Source: Owenia fusiformis (lineage: Eukaryota). Taken from it: a stretch of DNA of 64,000 nt. This document shows, piece by piece, positions 4,755-14,130 of this stretch (the first letter of the stretch is position 1; every line of letters starts with the position of its first letter). Made by a program: the position numbers and the translations under genes. Under the pieces are notes generated by a model, which was not told the DNA's origin, did no database searches, and saw only the letters and a program-made list of their open reading frames with translations. The stretch covers positions 22,816,001 through 22,880,000 of the forward strand of contig CAIIXF020000001.1 of assembly GCA_903813345.2 (NCBI GenBank). Direction: 5' to 3'.

Positions 4755-5410
4755 GATCAATAGGATTTTTGTTCAACATCAATATAGAAAAACCCCCAAT
4801 GACCCCTAGTTCAAAAGCTCGCCTATTTTCAAAATGGCCGCCATTTATGTCTCGCGAAATTTACTTTTGGACCATTTGCTTTAAAACCTGTGTCGATAGG
4901 ATTCTCGTTTTAAGTTATTTTTGTTCAACATCGATACAGAAAACTCCTTTATGGCTCCTGGTTCAAAAGCTCGCCTAATTTCAAAATGGCCGCCATTTAT
5001 GTCTCGCGAAATTTACTTTTGGACCATTTGCTTTAAAACCTGTTCGATAGGATTCTCGTTTTAAGTTATTTTTGTTCAACATCGATACAGAAAACTCCCT
5101 TATGGCTCCTGGTCCAAAAGCTCGCCTATTTTCAAAATGGTTGCCATTTTTGTCTCGCAGAATTTACTTTTGGCCCATTTCCTAGCTTTACAAAAAATCG
5201 GCAAAAAAATTTATCCATTTTTGAAATCCACTTTTTGACCGTTTGCCTTAAAACCTCTGTCGATAGGATTCCCGTTTTAAGTTACTTTTGTTCAACATCA
5301 TTGTATAAAACTCCTCTATGATTCCTGGTTCAAAAGCTCGCCTATTTTCAAAATGTACCATTTTTGTCTTACGAAACTCACTTGTGGCCAATTTCCTAGC
5401 TTTACAAATA
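4755..5410. repeat. Tandem repeat, ~152-bp unit, ~4 copies
   Basis: The AAAATG core recurs at 4831, 4983, 5134 and 5350 (last unit expanded). Units share caaaagctcgcctattttcaaaatggccgccattt. Confidence 0.9.
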
Positions 5411-6220
5411 ATGTCAGGTGTCCTGCATTGTAAAAAGCCATGTCACTGTAAAGATTAGTTATATGAAATACTTTTGTTACAAAAAATAGGCAAAAATTAC
5501 ATCCATTTTTTTTATTTTCTGCCATTTTAGCAGAAAAGTTTTGAATAACACCATGTTAGCCCAGTACCCATAGTACTATTTTTTTATTTTTTGTGTAGAA
5601 AGTAGCACGATTGTCACCATTGCTTGTGACCAATAGAGCGATATCCTATTCGGAGCTGTATAACGAAGGTCAATGAAAGATATCATTCTATTGAGGATTT
5701 TTTGTAGAAAATCAAACTTAAACACATTTAACGCACTACATGCATGCATACTTTATTTTTTGATAAAATACAATAGTTATAGGTATATCAAGTTACACCT
5801 TCGTATAGTTTTTTTTAATAACCAATGTTTCAAGTAATTCCTCTTTTTTAACTTACATTTCCAATCTTTTGATAATTTAATTTGTAATATTCACACCATT
5901 CCAAATCACCCCATTAACAAAGGATGAACCCAATATAATAGTGATCTTTTTTCCATGATCAGCTGTCCACTAGGATTTAAGCACCAGACTTAATAGTTTG
6001 TTTGTGATATATTTCCCAACTTAATGATTGCTTGCTTTGAACCAAGACCAAATGTAGATGTTTATAGCTAGAATACAATTAATGATTCACGTAAAGCACA
6101 AACAAAGCACCCATGTCATAGACTATCACACATTGCAAAACAGTTCCATAAAACGAAATAGAATTAATCATGGCCTCCTATTATTTGCTTCTTTCTAGTT
6201 GAAGACAGAAAGATGTAATT

Positions 6221-6727
6221 CACTGGTGATCCGCTCGATTACGCTGGTTACCGAAACGGTTCGTTTTGGTAACAAAATGTCGGAACGTCGAAGGTACGAT
6301 TTTTCTTTTTTCCTTATTTCACGCGTTGTAGGCAGAATCCCCACGACGTTTTTTCTCACAAACGTATATCAGTATCATATGTTTTAGAAAAGCTCAGATG
6401 ACAACACAATCGTCGATTTAATTCCTCACTTAAGTTGCATAAACGGTTTGGGTTAAAAGTGCAGATCTTAGCTGTTTTTCGAAATACCGTTTATGTAACT
6501 TTTAAGTGAGGAATTAAATCGACGATTCCGTTGTCTTCTGAACTATTTGTTCGCAAATATGTACATTTTCTTAAACATATGATACCGATATACGTTTGTG
6601 ATAAAAAATGTCGTGGGAATTCTGCCTACAACGTGTGAAATAAGGAAAAAAGAAAAATCGTACCTTCGATGTTCCGACATTTTGTTAACCGTTTCGGTAA
6701 CCAGCGTAATCGAGTGGATCACCAGTG
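6221..6727. mobile_element. Long foldback MITE, CACTGGTG termini, 5-bp TSD (TAATT); Transib/CMC-like
   Basis: Arms 6221-~6448 and ~6486-6727 are near-perfect reverse complements. TAATT flanks both ends (6216-6220, 6728-6732). Confidence 0.85.
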
Positions 6728-8554
6728 TAATTGAGTATTAGAATTGTAATCTGTACATCTGGCCAATTTCCAGCCGTTTTCTAGATGAGTATTCCAAAGT
6801 GCCAAAACGTCATTAATTCGCAAGTATTGACAAAATACGTGTATGAATAGTAAGTTTTGATTTTACAATGACATTGAAGATGTTGTCTATTTATCGAAGA
6901 AGTGCGCAACAGATGGTCCCTTTAAAATAAATAAATAGTTGTTCCACTCATTTTCGACACGCTCATGGTTGGCTTCGGGTATAAATTACAAAGATTTATT
7001 CTTTGTACTGCTGTGACTTTTTGCGACCCATGATTAGGAACTGAGGTCAATGTCAATGCTTATGGGTCAAGGTCATCTCAAGGTCAAAGTTTAATATATT
7101 TTGCGTTTTAAGGCACTCAAGGATACTGTGACCCTCGGCGATTCATAATTAGGTGGCCTGAGGTAAAAGTCAATGTTTGTGAGGCAAGCTCATCTCAAGG
7201 TCATATCTAGGTATTTGACGTTGTAAGACTTTTGGAAAAATTCTAAATCCAAGATTCGGTCAAGGTCAACGGATCAATATACGGATATTAGCATTTTATG
7301 GGGGCTGCTGCCATGTTGAGGCTGTTGTGACCTTTGGTGACCAATTCGAACGGGAAAATTGCAAGTACATGAAACATGCAAATGTAAAATATAACAAATA
7401 GCAACAATTGGAGTATTTTTTTTTATTATTGTCCAAATGTGGATAAGTATGCCAGCAGCCATCGAACTCAATGAGCATAATCAGTTTCACTAAATCCAGG
7501 TCAAGGCCAAAACAAACAATTCATTTGTTTTAAAATATAGAATTTCTTTAACGTTATGATAAGCTGTAATGTAATATATCATGTCCAGGTCTCTGTGTCA
7601 ATCAAAATCAAAATGAAAAATGAAAAAATAATGAATGTCTCTATCAACAACAAGCTGCTAGAGTAAAGTCCATTTAAGGCAAGATACGGGTTTAAAACAA
7701 TCATGTTTACATAATCTTTCATCAAGGCAGAATCAAATCTATGGAGGCAGCAAAATTACAAGTAACATGCATAATTGGCCTACCAATCCATTCTTTACAA
7801 TCTCAAATACAACATCTCCCAAAAGAATCACAATATGCTATAAATTGGTAAAGTTTTTAATGATTCAGAGTGCAAAGATGGGTGAAAATGTTTAAATTCT
7901 CCCAAATAATAAGAATGGTAACCATTCTTATAGAAATATATTGTAAAAATCTTTAGGTTTCCTGGAATAAACTACATGTATGCACTTTTGTGATTTTTAG
8001 AAAATTGACATGACAAGGAATAACACGAGCCAAAAATATTCTAAAATAGAAATAATTTTTGTTTAGCATGCTTGCTATATCTGATTCTCTCTTTAATTTA
8101 TACACCTATAGTCACCTAGTATCATAGTTATCATGGTAACAATGTAACCGAATGTAATTTGAAGAACGTAAGTTTCTTATTTTCTCTTATTGTAATTTTT
8201 TATTGTTGGATGTACGTTTGGCCCTATTCGATTTGATTAGGGCATCATAAATCCTATTCTATATGGTAAATATCTCATATCTTCGTTAAAATATAGATGT
8301 CAGTATGTTTAAGAGGAGGGAAAGCCCCAGAGTTTAAAGATGACAGGCATAATTACCTCTCTTGCTTACCACCTTCGTTCGTTCGAATTTTCATCGGCTA
8401 GTTATCAAATACTTCACTTCGATGGGATGTTTTAATTGGTATAGGCATATTCCGTACACCTTTCTTTATCTTGATGTGAAATGAGAAGCTATGATATTGA
8501 TTAACACTCCAGAAATGAACGTAATATTATTCGAAGCCTATTTCGAAAATTTTG

Positions 8555-8605
8555 AAACCGCCATTGATGACGTAATTTGTTTGTCGACTTTTGACCAATC
8601 AGCGA
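8555..8605 (+). promoter_or_regulatory. Candidate promoter of the SDR gene (YY1-like CCGCCATT, CRE-like TGACGTAA, CCAAT box)
   Basis: Three standard metazoan promoter motifs lie within 50 bp, ~200 bp upstream of a strong splice donor AAG|GTAAG at 8809/8810. Assignment to this gene is inference. Confidence 0.4.
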
Positions 8606-9640
8606 CGATGTCATCTCAATACAGATTTACATTAATAAGCGTATGTCATCTTTGAACCCTGGTGTTTCTCCCCCTCTGAGTATGTTTCATGGCCTCAATA
8701 ATCCGATGAGGTGATTATATTTGTTGTGTATACATGCGGTCCGTTAGTTTCACCGCCACGTTAAAATTTGCCTCGTTTTGACATTAATATGGTGGCTTGT
8801 CGCTACAAGGTAAGAACGGGCTAAAACTAGTCAGTTTGAGTGAATCTAACCATGCACATCGTATCAAATGTGTACCCGGGTAAAAACCGTTACATTGTGC
8901 GGCTATATGCGGATAGCCTTGCTTGACTTCACGTGTAGCAGAAAATAATGGAGATGTAAACAAGACGTTGTGAAAGTAAATGCAACTCGGTGTTTGAATG
9001 TAAATTCTACATGTACTGACATCTATTTTTTTAACTCAAACTTTTTCTATTTCAATCGATTATGATCAATTTACAAAAATGGACTGAACTTTACAACTGT
9101 CATTTATTGATCATAAGCTTCTAAAGTGTCGTATACGTAACTAGCCCACTACTTAAAAACCAAAATGGGCATTCCACAATGGACGGTTATATAGATAAAA
9201 AGCTCTGAATTTTATGAATATTAGTGGGTGATTAACTTTTATATACACATAAGATCGAGGGCTAGCGTAGTATAAAGAAAAGCATACAAAAGCATATGAC
9301 CTCTCCATATATCCCAAACACGCAGGGATTGTATTTCACATTTTTAGCGTCTTTGTGAGTTTCCCTACCATTACTTGTGGGATTGTGATAACAAGCATCA
9401 CGGCACAGCCGCTGAGATATCTTCAACTCCGATTTGGTACATTTTTAGATAAGGAGTACCTAATACCTATTTACTTTGTTAATGACCTTCATTGTTATCA
9501 TTGTAGGACAACTTTAGAGACACATGACTTGAGAGTACAATTGAAGTTACAACTATACTAAACAGGCCTTTGCATCATTATTTTTACTCCAAAGTAAATA
9601 ATTTGTGCGTGGATAGCATTTGTGCCTACAATTCTTCATC

Positions 9641-10675
9641 ATGAGTCTTAAGGTTGTTATCTTAGGAGCTGGTGGCCTAGTGGGGACGCGTTTGTGTCTA
9701 AAGATCGTGCAGCTACAGGAGATGCATATCAACCCTAGAGAGAGTCTACCATTGAAGAAAATCGTAATGTTCGATGCGATGGAGTTGAAAACAATCCCCG
9801 ATAGCATCAAGGGTGACGCTAGAGTCTCAGTAATGATTGGTGACTTGTGCGACAAGACGATCATAGCTAAAGCGGTAGAGCCGGACGGTTGTACGAGAGT
9901 GACTGTAATTCACCTCGCTGCTGTCCTCAGTGGTTACGCTGAAGAGAACTTCGACCTTGGTATGAAGGTGAACTTGCATGGCACGCTGAACGTTATGGAG
10001 TGCATGAGAGGTTTGGTTACGGAGCTGGGTCAACCTCAGATTTATGTCTACGTAAGCACAGATTACGTTTGCTGTTTCAACGACTATAATAAGAACCACC
10101 CAGTGAACGAAGAATCATTCCGTCTTTCACCCGTGTCATATGGTATCCAGAAGTCATGTATAGAACTGTTGATGTGCGATTACACCCGGAAGGGATTCTT
10201 AGATGGTCGAGTAGCTCGTCTCTCAGCCGTGATCGGACGTCCAGGATGGTCCAACTCAATCTCTTACCCATATACAGGTATTTTCACACAGCCACTTGAG
10301 GGGAAGGATTACGTGGTTCCTCTACCAATGGACGTCCCCTTCCCATGTTCTAGTCTTAATAACAACATAAATTGCCTGTTGTTTACCGCTAGCAACCTAG
10401 ATGGAACCAAACTTGGGCACAATCGTGTGATTCAACTTCCAGCAAAAGGTTGGACACTAAATGATATTTGGGCAGCTACCAAAGAAGTTGCATCTGAGAA
10501 AAGTGTCCAACTTGGTAAGATTACCAACCAAACAGATGGAGGTGATACCACAATTAAGGAGATCAATGTGTGTCCATATGTAGACTGTGGAAAAGCCGAA
10601 CGGCTTGGTTATCCCATGGATGTCGATCTAAAGGACATTATAAGAGACTACATCAATGTATATATAAAGAAATAG
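9641..10675 (+). CDS. Extended SDR NAD-dependent epimerase/dehydratase, D-erythronate dehydrogenase (DenD)-like, 344 aa, intronless CDS
   Basis: Intact ORF from ATG 9641 (atcATGa). Rossmann GAGGLVG; HLAAVLSGYAEENFDLGMKVN; catalytic YGIQK (YxxxK); DYTRKGFLDGR..RL...GRPG. These blocks are characteristic of the DenD/Gne-like SDR subgroup. AATAAA at ~10757. Confidence 0.93.
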   Translation: MSLKVVILGAGGLVGTRLCLKIVQLQEMHINPRESLPLKKIVMFDAMELKTIPDSIKGDARVSVMIGDLCDKTIIAKAVEPDGCTRVTVIHLAAVLSGYAEENFDLGMKVNLHGTLNVMECMRGLVTELGQPQIYVYVSTDYVCCFNDYNKNHPVNEESFRLSPVSYGIQKSCIELLMCDYTRKGFLDGRVARLSAVIGRPGWSNSISYPYTGIFTQPLEGKDYVVPLPMDVPFPCSSLNNNINCLLFTASNLDGTKLGHNRVIQLPAKGWTLNDIWAATKEVASEKSVQLGKITNQTDGGDTTIKEINVCPYVDCGKAERLGYPMDVDLKDIIRDYINVYIKK

Positions 10676-10797
10676 AATCAGTCGAGGACCAGATGTAAAA
10701 AATATGATAACAATGTATGATATTAATTGAAAGCATTAATTGTTATTCACATCATCAATAAAAAAGCATTTGGGAAGCAATTGTATTTCTTCAACCA

Positions 10798-11280
10798 AAC
10801 GACATTGACTTTGTGTATCAACGACATCGGCATTGTATATTTTCAAACGAACGACATTGGCCTTCTACCAAATGACATTGGCATTGAACAACTTCAACCG
10901 AACGACATCTGGCATTTTATATCTTCTACGAAAGACATTGGCATTGTATATCTTCAAACGAACGACATCGGCATTGTACAACTTCAACCGAACGACATGG
11001 GCATTGTATATCTTCTACGAACGACATTGGTATTGTATATCTTCAAACGAACGACATTGGCATTGTATATCTTCTACGAACGACATTGGTATTGTATATC
11101 TTCAAACGAACGACATCGGCATTGTACAACTTCAGCCGAACGGCAATGGCATTGTATATCTTCTACCGAACGACATTGGCATTGTATAATTTCAACTGAA
11201 TGGCCCTGGCATTGAATAACTCTTATCGAACGACATTGACCTTGACATTGTCTCACTTTAACTGAACAACATTGGCCTTG
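10798..11280. repeat. Minisatellite, 29-30-bp unit (aacgacattggcattgtatatcttcaaacg), ~16 copies
   Basis: Directly visible. It explains the spurious ORFs 10727-11215, 10833-11189 and 11074-11286. Confidence 0.95.
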
Positions 11281-11564
11281 AAACACTGACCTTGTTCGAC
11301 CTCAATAGAACGTTTGGCCTAGTTTTACATTGCAGTTCGACCAATACAAGTATTGGCAGCCATAGTCATGTATTATCAATTGGAAAACTTACAACGTAGT
11401 GCTCAAAAATAAAGTGAATTGAATGTCCTTTGTCGTATGATTCGTCATATGAATTATTCACATGCACGTGACATCCATCTCCATGTACACGCTGACAAAA
11501 AATGTTCCCCTTTAAAGGAATACTAACTTTCTCAATTTTGATACAATCTTTCGTATATGATATA

Positions 11565-12658
11565 CAGGGTGGTCCAAAAAAAATTGGAACATTTGATAAT
11601 TGAACTCAAAATCGTTATTTTTTCTCTAAAATGCACCAAAATTTTACTGAATATTGTTCAATCACTTATTTATCTGATGTAAAGTTTATAGGTGCAAACA
11701 ACAAAGTTAATGCATTAAACTAGAGAATGTTTGATATGACCCCTTTTCTCCTGAATTACAAGTTGAAGCCTGGGACTCAGTTTTGAAATGATTCATTCAC
11801 TTTACTGTTCGTTTGATTTTATCCAAGCCATCTTGATAAAAAATTCAGCTTGAACAAACTACTATATGTTTGCCTTGGAAGATCAAATACATGAACATAT
11901 TCAACAAATTTTTTACCCAAATTGATGGGTATCAATCATATTTTGATGTCTATTGTTGGATATATTACTGATTGGATATTCTCCAGAAAGAGGCCAGGGC
12001 AGTCTGTTTTGTCTGGTAAATGAACCCCCTCGTCTTTCTTGTTCTAATATGAATAATATTCATTGAATATATATGTATATCAATATCATAAAGGAATTTC
12101 CCAGAATACAAATGATATATTATATTATGTGTGCTTAGAAGTGGTCTTTAATAAAGCCTTGTAAATAACTAGTCAGTTTCCCCTCTACTGAAAAGTGGAA
12201 ACAATGATTTTGTCAGTTTGGTAGCTGTATGGGTTATGCAATCACTCACCTCTGACATGTTCTTTCTTTCCTACTCTTAAATAAAAGTAATGATTTTGGG
12301 TATTCTTAAGTTTACAATAACACAATAGTTTTCCAGTAAAACATAAATGTTAAAACCCCATTTCAACTAAATATGATTTTATAAAATGTGTATAGCAATC
12401 AACATGTTCATTAAAGCTTTGAAATAAAGAATACTTGAAAATGTAGCTGCGAAATTGACAAGTGCATATTTAAGAAAATGGGGTCATATCAAACATTGAC
12501 TAGTTTAATGCATTAACTTTGTGGTTTGCACCTATAAACTTTACATCAGAGAGATAAATGACTGAACTATGCTCAGTGAAATTTTGGTGCATTTTAGAGG
12601 AAAAATAACGGTTTTGTGTTCAATTAACCAATGTTCCAATTTTTTTTGGACCACCCTG
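11565..12658. mobile_element. Non-autonomous Tc1/mariner element, ~185-bp TIRs, TA TSD
   Basis: TA|CAGGGTGGTCCAAAAA...TTTTTGGACCACCCTG|TA. Arms ~11565-11750 and ~12470-12658. No intact transposase. Confidence 0.92.
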
Positions 12659-13554
12659 TAGTGATAAATGAATTGACAAATATTTGAAAATTACCTTCTG
12701 TTCAAGTTCCAATCATTTTTATAGATTATATTGATAGATTTAATATCACTGAATATGGTATTGCTTGTTGAGGATCACACAACATTACCGTTTATCGTTT
12801 ATTTGAGATTTAAGCAGGGGTCCATTTTTTCAAGAAATAATCATTTTAAAAGATTTCTTGTAAATAGATAATAAATAAGTACAAAAAGCATGATTTATTA
12901 TATATAAAAAGCATAATGTAAAATTTCAACTGAAAAATTAGATCAAAATGGAATCCATGTTCACAGTGGGGGGTATAACTCATCAAACACTGGATAATTT
13001 TTTTAAAGCTTATTGATACAGCCTAATATTTTTAATTTGCATTCTTTTAGTTAGGATTATAGCATTGACTATTTATGAATTTTTGAGCACCATACAAAGT
13101 TACAGAACTTCATTTATGAACGATTTCAGCAGGGGTCTATTTTACAAATATTAAATATTTTTCCGGATAGTTCTTAGATGAAAAGCTAGTACATTGTTAC
13201 GATAAAATTACATCATTGAGGTGTATAAATTATGAAAACAGGTTTCATCCTGATGTCTTCAACGTAATTCGTATAACGCCATGTCACAAATGGGGGGGGG
13301 GACATTGACCTCCACTTGGGGATCTTTATTGCTTATATGATTTCAATATTACAGTAATGTCGGTATCATTATAAACAGGCATTAAATAAGTGTAGACTAT
13401 TATAAATACGTTGACAGCAAGAAAATGTATACAATTTAAACTGTAAAATGAGATAACAATGGGCTCTTAAATCACAATGATTGGTGTAACTAATCAAATT
13501 TTTACTTTATAAGCTTAGTATCATGTCCTAAAAATTTAAATTAATTTTAAGTAG

Positions 13555-14130
13555 TTATCCCATTGAACAAAGTTCGGAGGGATATAGGTAACGGGCCTCT
13601 ATTCATCCATCCGTCCGTCCGTCTGTCCGTTTGTACGTACGTCCGTTCGGGCAATAACTCAAATACCGTTGGTCAGATTTTGTTCATATTTCGTACACAT
13701 GTACCCTATGGGTCGATTTTCAAAATGGCCGCTCATTTAAAAATAGCGGCCATTTTAGTGCCGATTTTATAGCAATTTAGGTACAATATGTAAAACTGTA
13801 ATACCAATAACTTTTAAATGAAAAAAAATTATATAGGACATTAATAAAGCTAGAAATGTAGATATTAAAGAAACACATGGCAGCCATCTTGAAAAATGGT
13901 TGCCTTTACTTGTTATTTTACGATTTTTGCTGCAACTTGAAAAGTAGTTGAGTGATTTCGTTCATATTTGGTATGTAAATACTATAAGCATGGCACACTG
14001 TCTGATGACACTTTTGGTAGAAGGCGGCAATTTTAAACATAGCCGCCATTTTACGTATTTTACTATAACTCGAAAAGTTGTGGAGCGATTTTGATCATCT
14101 CTGGTATGTGAATACTATTAACATGGCACA
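13555..14130 (+). mobile_element. HINE/Pearl(DINE-1)-like element
   Basis: Starts with TTATCCC...GGGATA (short inverted repeat), then a (GTCC/GTCT/GTAC)n microsatellite at ~13603-13648, then AAAATGGCCGC core repeats. This is the established architecture of Helentron-associated elements. Confidence 0.75.

Follow-up and report, generated by a model that had tools for sequence, protein, structure and literature searches.

A D-Erythronate Dehydrogenase-like Gene of a Eukaryotic Sister Clade in the Annelid Owenia fusiformis

The Locus and Its Open Reading Frame

The DNA analysed here (hereafter, the window) is a stretch of 64,000 nucleotides (nt) from the annelid Owenia fusiformis, corresponding to positions 22,816,001 to 22,880,000 of contig CAIIXF020000001.1 (GenBank assembly GCA_903813345.2). 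At 9641-10675 of its forward strand it carries an intact and uninterrupted open reading frame (ORF) from ATG to TAG, which encodes a protein of 344 amino acids (aa) related to the bacterial D-erythronate dehydrogenase DenD. The ORF is best explained as a functioning gene of the annelid itself, neither a contaminant nor a recent bacterial import, and to judge from its sequence the encoded protein is a member of a eukaryote-only group, so far uncharacterised, that is sister to bacterial DenD. The gene is already annotated in NCBI as an unnamed product of O. fusiformis, and what is new is its placement in this clade and its odd distribution. An earlier note, made from the letters of the window, had described the ORF as a DenD-like gene of bacterial or fungal type that was surrounded by animal-type transposons, and had proposed either horizontal transfer or the patchy retention of an old family.

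A stop-to-stop scan of the six frames revealed only one other frame of at least 150 aa in the window (162 aa, 10727-11215), which lies mostly inside a 30-nt tandem array and is spurious, and apart from this frame the ORF is the sole long one, as had been stated. When the ORF was shuffled, none of 20,000 shuffles remained free of stop codons. The sequence is collinear from end to end with homologues of 340-350 aa and shows no internal break, and no read joint inside the ORF is found among the joints listed, which bears out the reported absence of coding introns. A tblastn search detected no second copy of the gene within the window. The ORF has a G+C content (GC) of 0.447, with 0.47 at third codon positions (GC3), in a window of 0.35, and its observed/expected CpG ratio (0.78) is similar to that of the window (0.76). 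The composition was also considered as a signal of foreign origin and proved uninformative, as the GC3 value falls between those of the GC-rich relative L006 (0.69-0.87), described below, and the AT-rich relative L001 (0.19). The features of the region are collected in Table 1.

Table 1. Features of the gene and of its surroundings (positions in the window)
Feature	Position	Strand	Basis
Single-exon coding sequence, 344 codons + TAG, extended short-chain dehydrogenase/reductase of the DenD-like eukaryotic clade	9641..10675	+	ORF listing, NF043036, AlphaFold model
GxxGxxG motif, codons G9-A-G-G12-L-V-G15	9665..9685	+	Follows first strand E3-8 of the model
Codons of S139 and Y167-G-I-Q-K171, catalytic Ser + Tyr-x-x-x-Lys	10055..10153	+	Invariance in alignment
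Probable 5' untranslated region, transcription start nearby	9540..9640	+	RNA depth rise to 1-4.6 on one strand from bin 9540-9719
Probable 3' untranslated region	10676..10790	+	RNA depth drop in last bin 10620-10797
High-copy repeat upstream of the gene	8280..8819		Summed contig depth 6978-24052 in run X1, RNA on both strands
Tandem array of a 30-nt unit in 14.3 copies (75% matches)	10820..11238		Tandem Repeats Finder; direct repeat families D1, D2
Element of ~1.1 kb, 185-nt inverted ends, 91% complementary	11563..12660		Inverted repeat I2 (11563-11747/12476-12660)
Small element with inverted ends, 94% complementary	6270-6391/6566-6687		Inverted repeat search

Protein Family, Conserved Residues and Predicted Structure

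The protein matches the Pfam family PF01370 (Epimerase) with 45 bits (gathering cutoff 20.9, E-value 1.2e-11), and by far its best family is NCBIfam NF043036 (D-erythronate dehydrogenase; E-value 4.6e-56), which is matched over positions 1-318 of a profile of 321. The assignment as DenD-like made in the earlier note is sustained by this full-length match to the best family. The score of 190.3 bits is below the curated cutoff of 325, and the protein therefore does not qualify as a DenD equivalog. Eight other members of the eukaryotic clade score between 162 and 188 bits, while four bacterial-type loci from metagenomes reach 372-470 bits, all four above the cutoff, which is also passed by 6 of 11 distant relatives.

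The GxxGxxG sequence constitutes the dinucleotide-binding motif of short-chain dehydrogenases/reductases (SDRs), and Ser, Tyr and Lys form their catalytic triad. In an alignment of 43 sequences, the three glycines (G9, G12 and G15) and the triad (S139, Y167 and K171) are invariant, and the window protein keeps all 17 columns that are invariant across those sequences. Two blocks highlighted in the earlier note, HLAA.LSG.AE..FDLGM.VN and DYTRKGF.DGR..RL, are indeed present, as IHLAAVLSGYAEENFDLGMKVN at residues 90-111 and DYTRKGFLDGRVARL at residues 180-194, and both are conserved with bacterial DenD. Residues S97, E101, N111, D180, R183, G189, R190 and R193 are invariant in the same 43 sequences, and R200 is conserved in at least 90% of the alignment. 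When conservation was determined in the 32 other members of the eukaryotic clade, with both Owenia sequences excluded, 28 columns were found to be invariant and 114 to be conserved at 90% or more, of which the window protein keeps 27 and 110, respectively. The conserved columns, the open frame and the transcription of the gene (see below) point to a working enzyme.

The AlphaFold model of the protein, built with the 43-sequence alignment, reaches a mean predicted local distance difference test (pLDDT) value of 94.8 and a predicted template modelling (pTM) score of 0.93. It shows the two-domain fold of the extended SDRs, which consists of a Rossmann domain and a C-terminal substrate domain, with template modelling (TM) scores of 0.70-0.84 to solved members of this class. 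The best solved structure is 2HRZ (TM 0.84), followed by L-threonine dehydrogenases (TDHs) and uridine diphosphate (UDP)-sugar 4-epimerases. By sequence, 2HRZ is the sole natural relative in the PDB (E-value 4.7e-29), and the remaining match is one artificial TDH (E-value 2.5e-07).

No fused longer form of the protein, defined as 603-2000 aa at an E-value of at most 1e-30, was found, a result that the tool itself rates as weak evidence. Among the distant DenD-type proteins, six (P0127, P0132, P0179, P0134, P0155 and P0160) have lengths of 627-720 aa and hold a second, C-terminal dehydrogenase module. This module is a classical SDR (PF00106) in P0134, P0155 and P0160, and it is of the β-hydroxyacid dehydrogenase type (PF03446, accompanied by PF14833 in two of them) in P0127, P0132 and P0179. 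L-threonate 2-dehydrogenase is likewise of the β-hydroxyacid dehydrogenase type, and the latter three would accordingly be two-enzyme tetronate fusions.

Transcription and Residence in the Annelid Genome

The best database match is an unnamed O. fusiformis protein (P0001) encoded on a contig of 62.2 Mb, which is identical at 332 of 344 positions (97%) without gaps. According to this identity, the window derives from a different haplotype, a different individual or a very close species. Two of the differences, V232I and V263I, are reproduced as variants in sequencing reads, with two silent variants beside them in the stretch shown. Part of the region 9000-11000 is present in 20 of 24 listed public runs, which belong to 7 studies and one organism label. 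In one of them (X1), contigs covering 8952-9681 and 9866-10467 have a depth of 13-31, similar to that of the unique flank, and one contig record (9367-9681) joins the start of the ORF to the upstream flank. The even coverage of gene and flanks in this run looks like DNA data.

The transcription of the gene was analysed in three stranded RNA-seq runs, of which about 6, 6 and 12% was read, by mapping the raw reads to 5400-10797. Reads with the first mate on the minus strand cover 9540-10797 at a depth of 0.4-4.6, compared with 0-1.0 for those with the first mate on the plus strand. Coverage of 8820-9539 is about 0, apart from some two reads in run X22 and a single bin of run X21 at about 0.6. 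Assuming the usual stranded protocol, the ORF is transcribed in sense at a low level from a start within about 100 nt of the ATG. A search of a sequencing-run index listed no RNA run with the gene, and expression is documented only by the three raw-read runs. An AATAAA sequence is found at 10757-10762, 82 nt past the stop codon.

Relatives and Phylogenetic Position

The relatives of the window protein were taken from the best 120 of 643 matches, and those of its counterpart in the flatworm Macrostomum lignano from the best 120 of 143; the statements on distribution that follow refer to these matches. Among the 120 listed matches, Owenia is represented solely by P0001 (2 clustered sequences from 1 contig), with no further protein of this animal as a candidate for an intron-bearing parent. 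The next-closest identity after Owenia is 70%, with no copy between 70% and 97% among the matches listed. The named relatives with 58-70% identity are 12 choanoflagellates (among them Monosiga, Salpingoeca and Acanthoeca), two arcellinids (Difflugia and Pyxidicula), two diplonemids and one prokinetoplastid, and the choanoflagellates and arcellinid amoebae share 62-70% with the window protein. More distant are M. lignano (48-49%), two chlorarachniophytes (42-44%) and a euglenid (42%), and many unnamed contigs of about 1.1 kb fall within the same identity range as the named relatives. All others have at most 36% identity and are bacterial proteins annotated as D-erythronate dehydrogenase plus some from algae and dinoflagellates, those above the DenD cutoff being 29-34% identical to the window protein.

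The only animals named among the matches listed in both searches are Owenia and Macrostomum, and choanoflagellates appear among the best named matches of both animal proteins. The patchy distribution in animals that the earlier note had suspected is confirmed, among the matches listed, by this single additional animal, as opposed to orthologs spread broadly across Metazoa. No fungal sequence is named among the 120 listed matches, and the fungal affinity proposed in that note is not sustained. The ESM Atlas returned only bacterial clusters, but it covers clusters of at least 50 members and is hence blind to a small eukaryotic clade. At the C terminus, the Owenia protein and most choanoflagellate members end in -YIKK. 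Endings of the form -AKL, -SKL or -PKL, which resemble peroxisomal signals, occur in six members (P0003, P0002, P0012, P0047, P0049 and P0077) that come from arcellinids, diplonemids, the prokinetoplastid and some environmental rows.

One of the relatives, L006, is an unnamed genomic contig of 1601 nt (GC 0.62) that matches residues 52-314 in six pieces with 56-73% identity, together with an in-frame insert of 22 codons. Its coding sequence is interrupted at least five times, which shows that members of the eukaryotic clade can be intron-rich.

In a quick tree of 76 rows, Owenia falls in a group of 29 rows with choanoflagellates, arcellinids and environmental sequences, with a value of 94 in the Shimodaira-Hasegawa-like approximate likelihood ratio test (SH-aLRT) and no internal resolution. 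A more careful tree of 48 rows was calculated under LG+C20+F+G4 by posterior mean site frequencies (PMSF), in which the bootstrap had not fully settled. This tree recovers a eukaryote-only clade of 40 rows including Owenia (100/100), and the stem between this clade and DenD measures 1.64 changes per column. Its basal branching is a polytomy, from which the Owenia pair arises as a lineage of its own with a stem of 0.26; over both trees this stem measures 0.26-0.35, of the same order as the stems of the protist lineages. Eleven of the 12 named choanoflagellates form a clade (92/90) that excludes Owenia, and Owenia is found neither in the clade of arcellinids and environmental rows (95/86) nor in that of the diplonemids (100/99).

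Two constrained topologies were compared with the free one by the approximately unbiased (AU) test, for which the groupings had been chosen after viewing the first tree, a circumstance that according to the tool weakens the test. Joining Owenia and Macrostomum costs 4.8 log-likelihood units (p-AU 0.401), and a clade of 18 rows that unites the two animals with every choanoflagellate costs 16.3 (p-AU 0.202), neither of the two topologies being rejected.

Genomic Surroundings

None of the 118 other stop-to-stop ORFs of at least 62 aa in the window has a Pfam match above the gathering score. The 25 of them with at least 90 aa have no Pfam match at an E-value of 0.001 or lower, and the remaining 93 yield three weak matches (E-values of 0.002-0.01), none of them to a transposon family. 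The surrounding animal-type transposons of the earlier note are thus not confirmed as described: Pfam recognises neither a transposon protein nor a host exon among the 118 ORFs, and what the flanks show are high-copy repeats, small elements with inverted ends and tandem arrays.

In addition to the repeat upstream of the gene, high-copy blocks are located at 5400-5579, 6120-6839 and 7740-8099, and the depth in run X1 over all these blocks is 5800-29000, compared with 13-31 over the gene. Over the mapped stretch, RNA-seq depth peaks in the upstream repeat (up to 406 per bin), where many reads also have loose ends, namely at 8311, 8594 and 8677-8683; this suggests an expressed multi-copy element whose copies diverge past these points. 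The block around the small element with inverted ends is likewise high-copy, and the RNA runs contain transcripts of it from both strands. On the other side, the tandem array begins about 60 nt beyond the putative poly(A) signal and lies outside the gene, and the ORFs of the ~1.1 kb element that follows it hold no Pfam domain. At a larger scale, a pair of inverted arms of about 280 nt (1071-1354 and 13737-14021, 80-82% complementary) brackets 12.4 kb including the gene. It was considered that they might be the ends of a carrier element, an interpretation that was not adopted, given that arms with this degree of complementarity could be merely two copies of a dispersed repeat.

Origin of the Gene

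Two explanations for the presence of this gene in Owenia, retention of a relic and transfer from a protist, are about equally likely. The one ranked first, with a probability slightly under one half, is vertical retention accompanied by intron loss. According to this proposal, choanoflagellates and animals would have inherited the family from their common ancestor, and nearly all animal lineages would then have lost it, the survivors being the lineage of Owenia, which evolves slowly, and Macrostomum, whose protein is much diverged. In Owenia the gene would have lost all its introns, most simply if a processed transcript was reinserted and took the place of its parent. The proposal is favoured by the fact that the choanoflagellates, the sister group of animals, carry the gene, and the patchy retention of an old family put forward in the earlier note survives the AU tests (p 0.40 and 0.20). 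According to an excerpt of PMC9977687, fewer genes were lost in O. fusiformis than in any other annelid sampled. Further points on this side are that Owenia stands outside the choanoflagellate, arcellinid and diplonemid clades on a branch as deep as those of the protist lineages, that choanoflagellates rank high among the named matches of either animal protein, and that the -YIKK end recurs in most choanoflagellates.

Several observations weigh against this proposal. Vertical descent needs many independent losses, as only two animals are among the named matches listed. An old animal gene is expected to have introns, and that of Owenia is intronless, compared with the at least five interruptions of L006. 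With regard to retroposition, no poly(A) remnant was seen around the transcript, and the search for a target-site duplication returned only direct matches of 10-15 nt, which are AT-rich and were taken as chance. Furthermore, the free trees keep Owenia and Macrostomum apart, and the latter joins the prokinetoplastid (89/83), both being on long branches. Finally, the star-like base of a clade that spans very distant eukaryotes could equally reflect lateral spread among protists.

This last point leads to the second explanation, which is judged only a little less probable than retention and holds that a protist, whether choanoflagellate-like, arcellinid-like or of an unsampled lineage, was the source from which an ancestor of Owenia acquired the gene, perhaps in the form of a processed transcript or from a donor poor in introns, after which it became a resident, expressed gene. 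The family would have circulated among marine and freshwater phagotrophic protists, and the intron-free copy would have gained a promoter and been kept under purifying selection. A transfer of this kind agrees with the lack of introns in a family in which L006 is so often interrupted, with the isolation of the gene among repeats (0 of the 118 other ORFs of the 64 kb being above a Pfam gathering score) and with the extreme patchiness in animals among the matches listed. It also agrees with the identity of 58-70% to protists of three supergroups, with the star-like base, which suggests lateral spread within the family, and with the separation of the two animals in the free trees. There is a precedent in the denD-like genes of ditrysian Lepidoptera, although an excerpt of PMC12477841 traces these to bacteria. 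Nevertheless, Owenia is nested in no sampled protist clade, the vertical topologies survive the AU tests, and the composition of the gene carries no foreign signal, its CpG ratio being equal to that of the window. The Owenia branch is as long as whole protist lineages, so that any transfer would be old and its donor unsampled, and no copy of 70-97% identity among the matches listed marks such a donor.

The other three explanations are much less probable. A young retrocopy, whose intron-bearing parent survives elsewhere in the same genome, would account for the single exon, the compact transcript and the repeat-rich surroundings. It is nonetheless improbable, since the sole Owenia protein among the 120 listed matches is the counterpart of the ORF and not a diverged parent, the window contains no second copy, and neither a poly(A) tail nor a target-site duplication accompanies the gene; the intron-bearing parent contemplated in the earlier note has accordingly not appeared among the matches listed. 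Even less likely is the direct transfer of a bacterial denD into the annelid, even though the curated family that fits best is bacterial DenD, an Agrobacterium protein provides the closest solved structure by sequence, the gene has no introns, and the nearest feature-based clusters of the ESM Atlas are bacterial. The Atlas, restricted to clusters of at least 50 members, cannot display the small eukaryotic clade, and the protein lies inside the 100/100 eukaryote-only clade, separated from DenD by the stem of 1.64. Its identity is 29-34% to proteins above the DenD cutoff in comparison with 58-70% to protists (62-70% to choanoflagellates and arcellinids), and its score is 190 bits in comparison with 372-470 for bacterial DenD proteins. 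The bacterial source of the earlier note is therefore not sustained, and what persists of its horizontal transfer is the version in which the donor is a protist rather than a bacterium. The least likely explanation is that the gene represents contaminant protist DNA or an assembly artefact, an idea prompted by the closest relatives outside Owenia being protists that might live on or in a marine worm. The same gene is found on the 62 Mb contig of an independent NCBI assembly and in runs of 7 studies, and contigs of another data set link it to flanks with repeats that are high-copy in runs of the same organism. In addition, its depth equals that of the unique flanking DNA, and its GC of 0.45 in a window of 0.35 is ordinary for a coding region. 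The contig, the multiple runs, the depth and the variants make contamination very unlikely.

If the retention of a relic is correct, the gene would be another pre-animal gene kept only in slow lineages like Owenia, with complete loss of introns. If the origin is protist, it would represent a rarely documented transfer from a eukaryote to an animal, by which the worm, unlike other animals, would have become capable of one step in the breakdown of C4 sugar acids.

Proposed Function

Erythronate and threonate arise from the breakdown of ascorbate and from side reactions of the pentose phosphate pathway. As described in excerpts of PMC10580937 and PMC12994016, DenD oxidises D-erythronate to 2-oxo-tetronate, from which an isomerase, a kinase and a decarboxylase yield dihydroxyacetone phosphate (DHAP). 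By analogy, the window protein would be a cytosolic, NAD-binding extended SDR in which Ser139, Tyr167 and Lys171 mediate the NAD+-dependent oxidation of a small sugar acid at the hydroxyl adjacent to its carboxylate, giving a keto acid. The class of the enzyme, an NAD+-dependent 2-dehydrogenase of a small sugar acid, can be predicted with good confidence. The substrate proposed, for which D-erythronate or a threonate would be the first candidates, is much more doubtful: the protein falls short of the DenD cutoff and differs in the loop 201-235, and its substrate may consequently not be D-erythronate, which also weighs against the proposed role. Judging from the alignment, the four arginines R183, R190, R193 and R200 could hold the carboxylate. 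The location in the cytosol is a guess derived from the C terminus of the Owenia protein, which is not of the -SKL/-AKL type.

In the four bacterial-type metagenome loci, no tetronate kinase gene was found adjoining denD. An excerpt of PMC12540250 concerns L-threonate in plants. If the prediction is correct, erythronate, threonate or similar four-carbon sugar acids may be catabolised in some eukaryotes, an animal among them.

Comparison with Known Systems

With the GalE-like L-threonine 3-dehydrogenases and UDP-sugar 4-epimerases, the window protein shares the fold class (TM 0.70-0.78), but the identity is only 17-21%, in line with the remark in the earlier note that it is less like the usual extended SDRs of animals. 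The similarity to 2HRZ, the Agrobacterium tumefaciens 'nucleoside-diphosphate-sugar epimerase', is more extensive, as it covers residues 3-338 by sequence and the folds superimpose with a TM score of 0.84 and a root-mean-square deviation of 2.9; however, the identity is 28%, and 2HRZ is a structural-genomics entry with a title that gives no function. The denD-like genes of ditrysian Lepidoptera, as presented in an excerpt of PMC12477841, resemble the Owenia gene in being members of the DenD family that reside in an animal genome. They are of bacterial type and have bacterial sisters, whereas the Owenia gene belongs to a eukaryote-only clade, and none of them is found among the 120 listed matches (of 643). 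Judged by title or abstract, none of the listed papers on horizontal transfer in Owenia fusiformis deals with this gene, and a full-text search found none joining erythronate and choanoflagellates.

Bacterial DenD (NF043036, KEGG K22025) and the window protein match collinearly over their full length and have in common the extended-SDR fold, the GxxGxxG motif, the catalytic Ser and YxxxK, the blocks HLAAxxSGxAExxFDLGMxVN and DYTRKGFxDGRxxRL, and the four arginines mentioned above. They differ in the score (190 versus the 325 bits of the cutoff), in the identity of 29-34% and in the stem of 1.64, and the clade of Owenia possesses its own, strongly conserved loop at 201-235 (GWSNSISYPYTGIFTQPLEGKDY) and its own C-terminal block, TTxKEINVCP.

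The nearest by sequence are the uncharacterised eukaryotic DenD-like proteins of Monosiga brevicollis (MONBRDRAFT_34110), Salpingoeca rosetta, arcellinids and diplonemids, with which the window protein shares 58-70% identity over the full length, the length itself and the motifs, as well as the -YIKK end in the case of most choanoflagellates. It is distinguished by its animal host and, in comparison with the at least five interruptions of L006, by its intronless gene, and some of the protist members end in -SKL or -AKL. Too much is often read into animal genes that are flagged as bacterial, and in the case of Owenia a bacterial-looking annotation resolves to a eukaryotic sister family of DenD, whose members occur in choanoflagellates, in several groups of protists and in two animals of the Spiralia.

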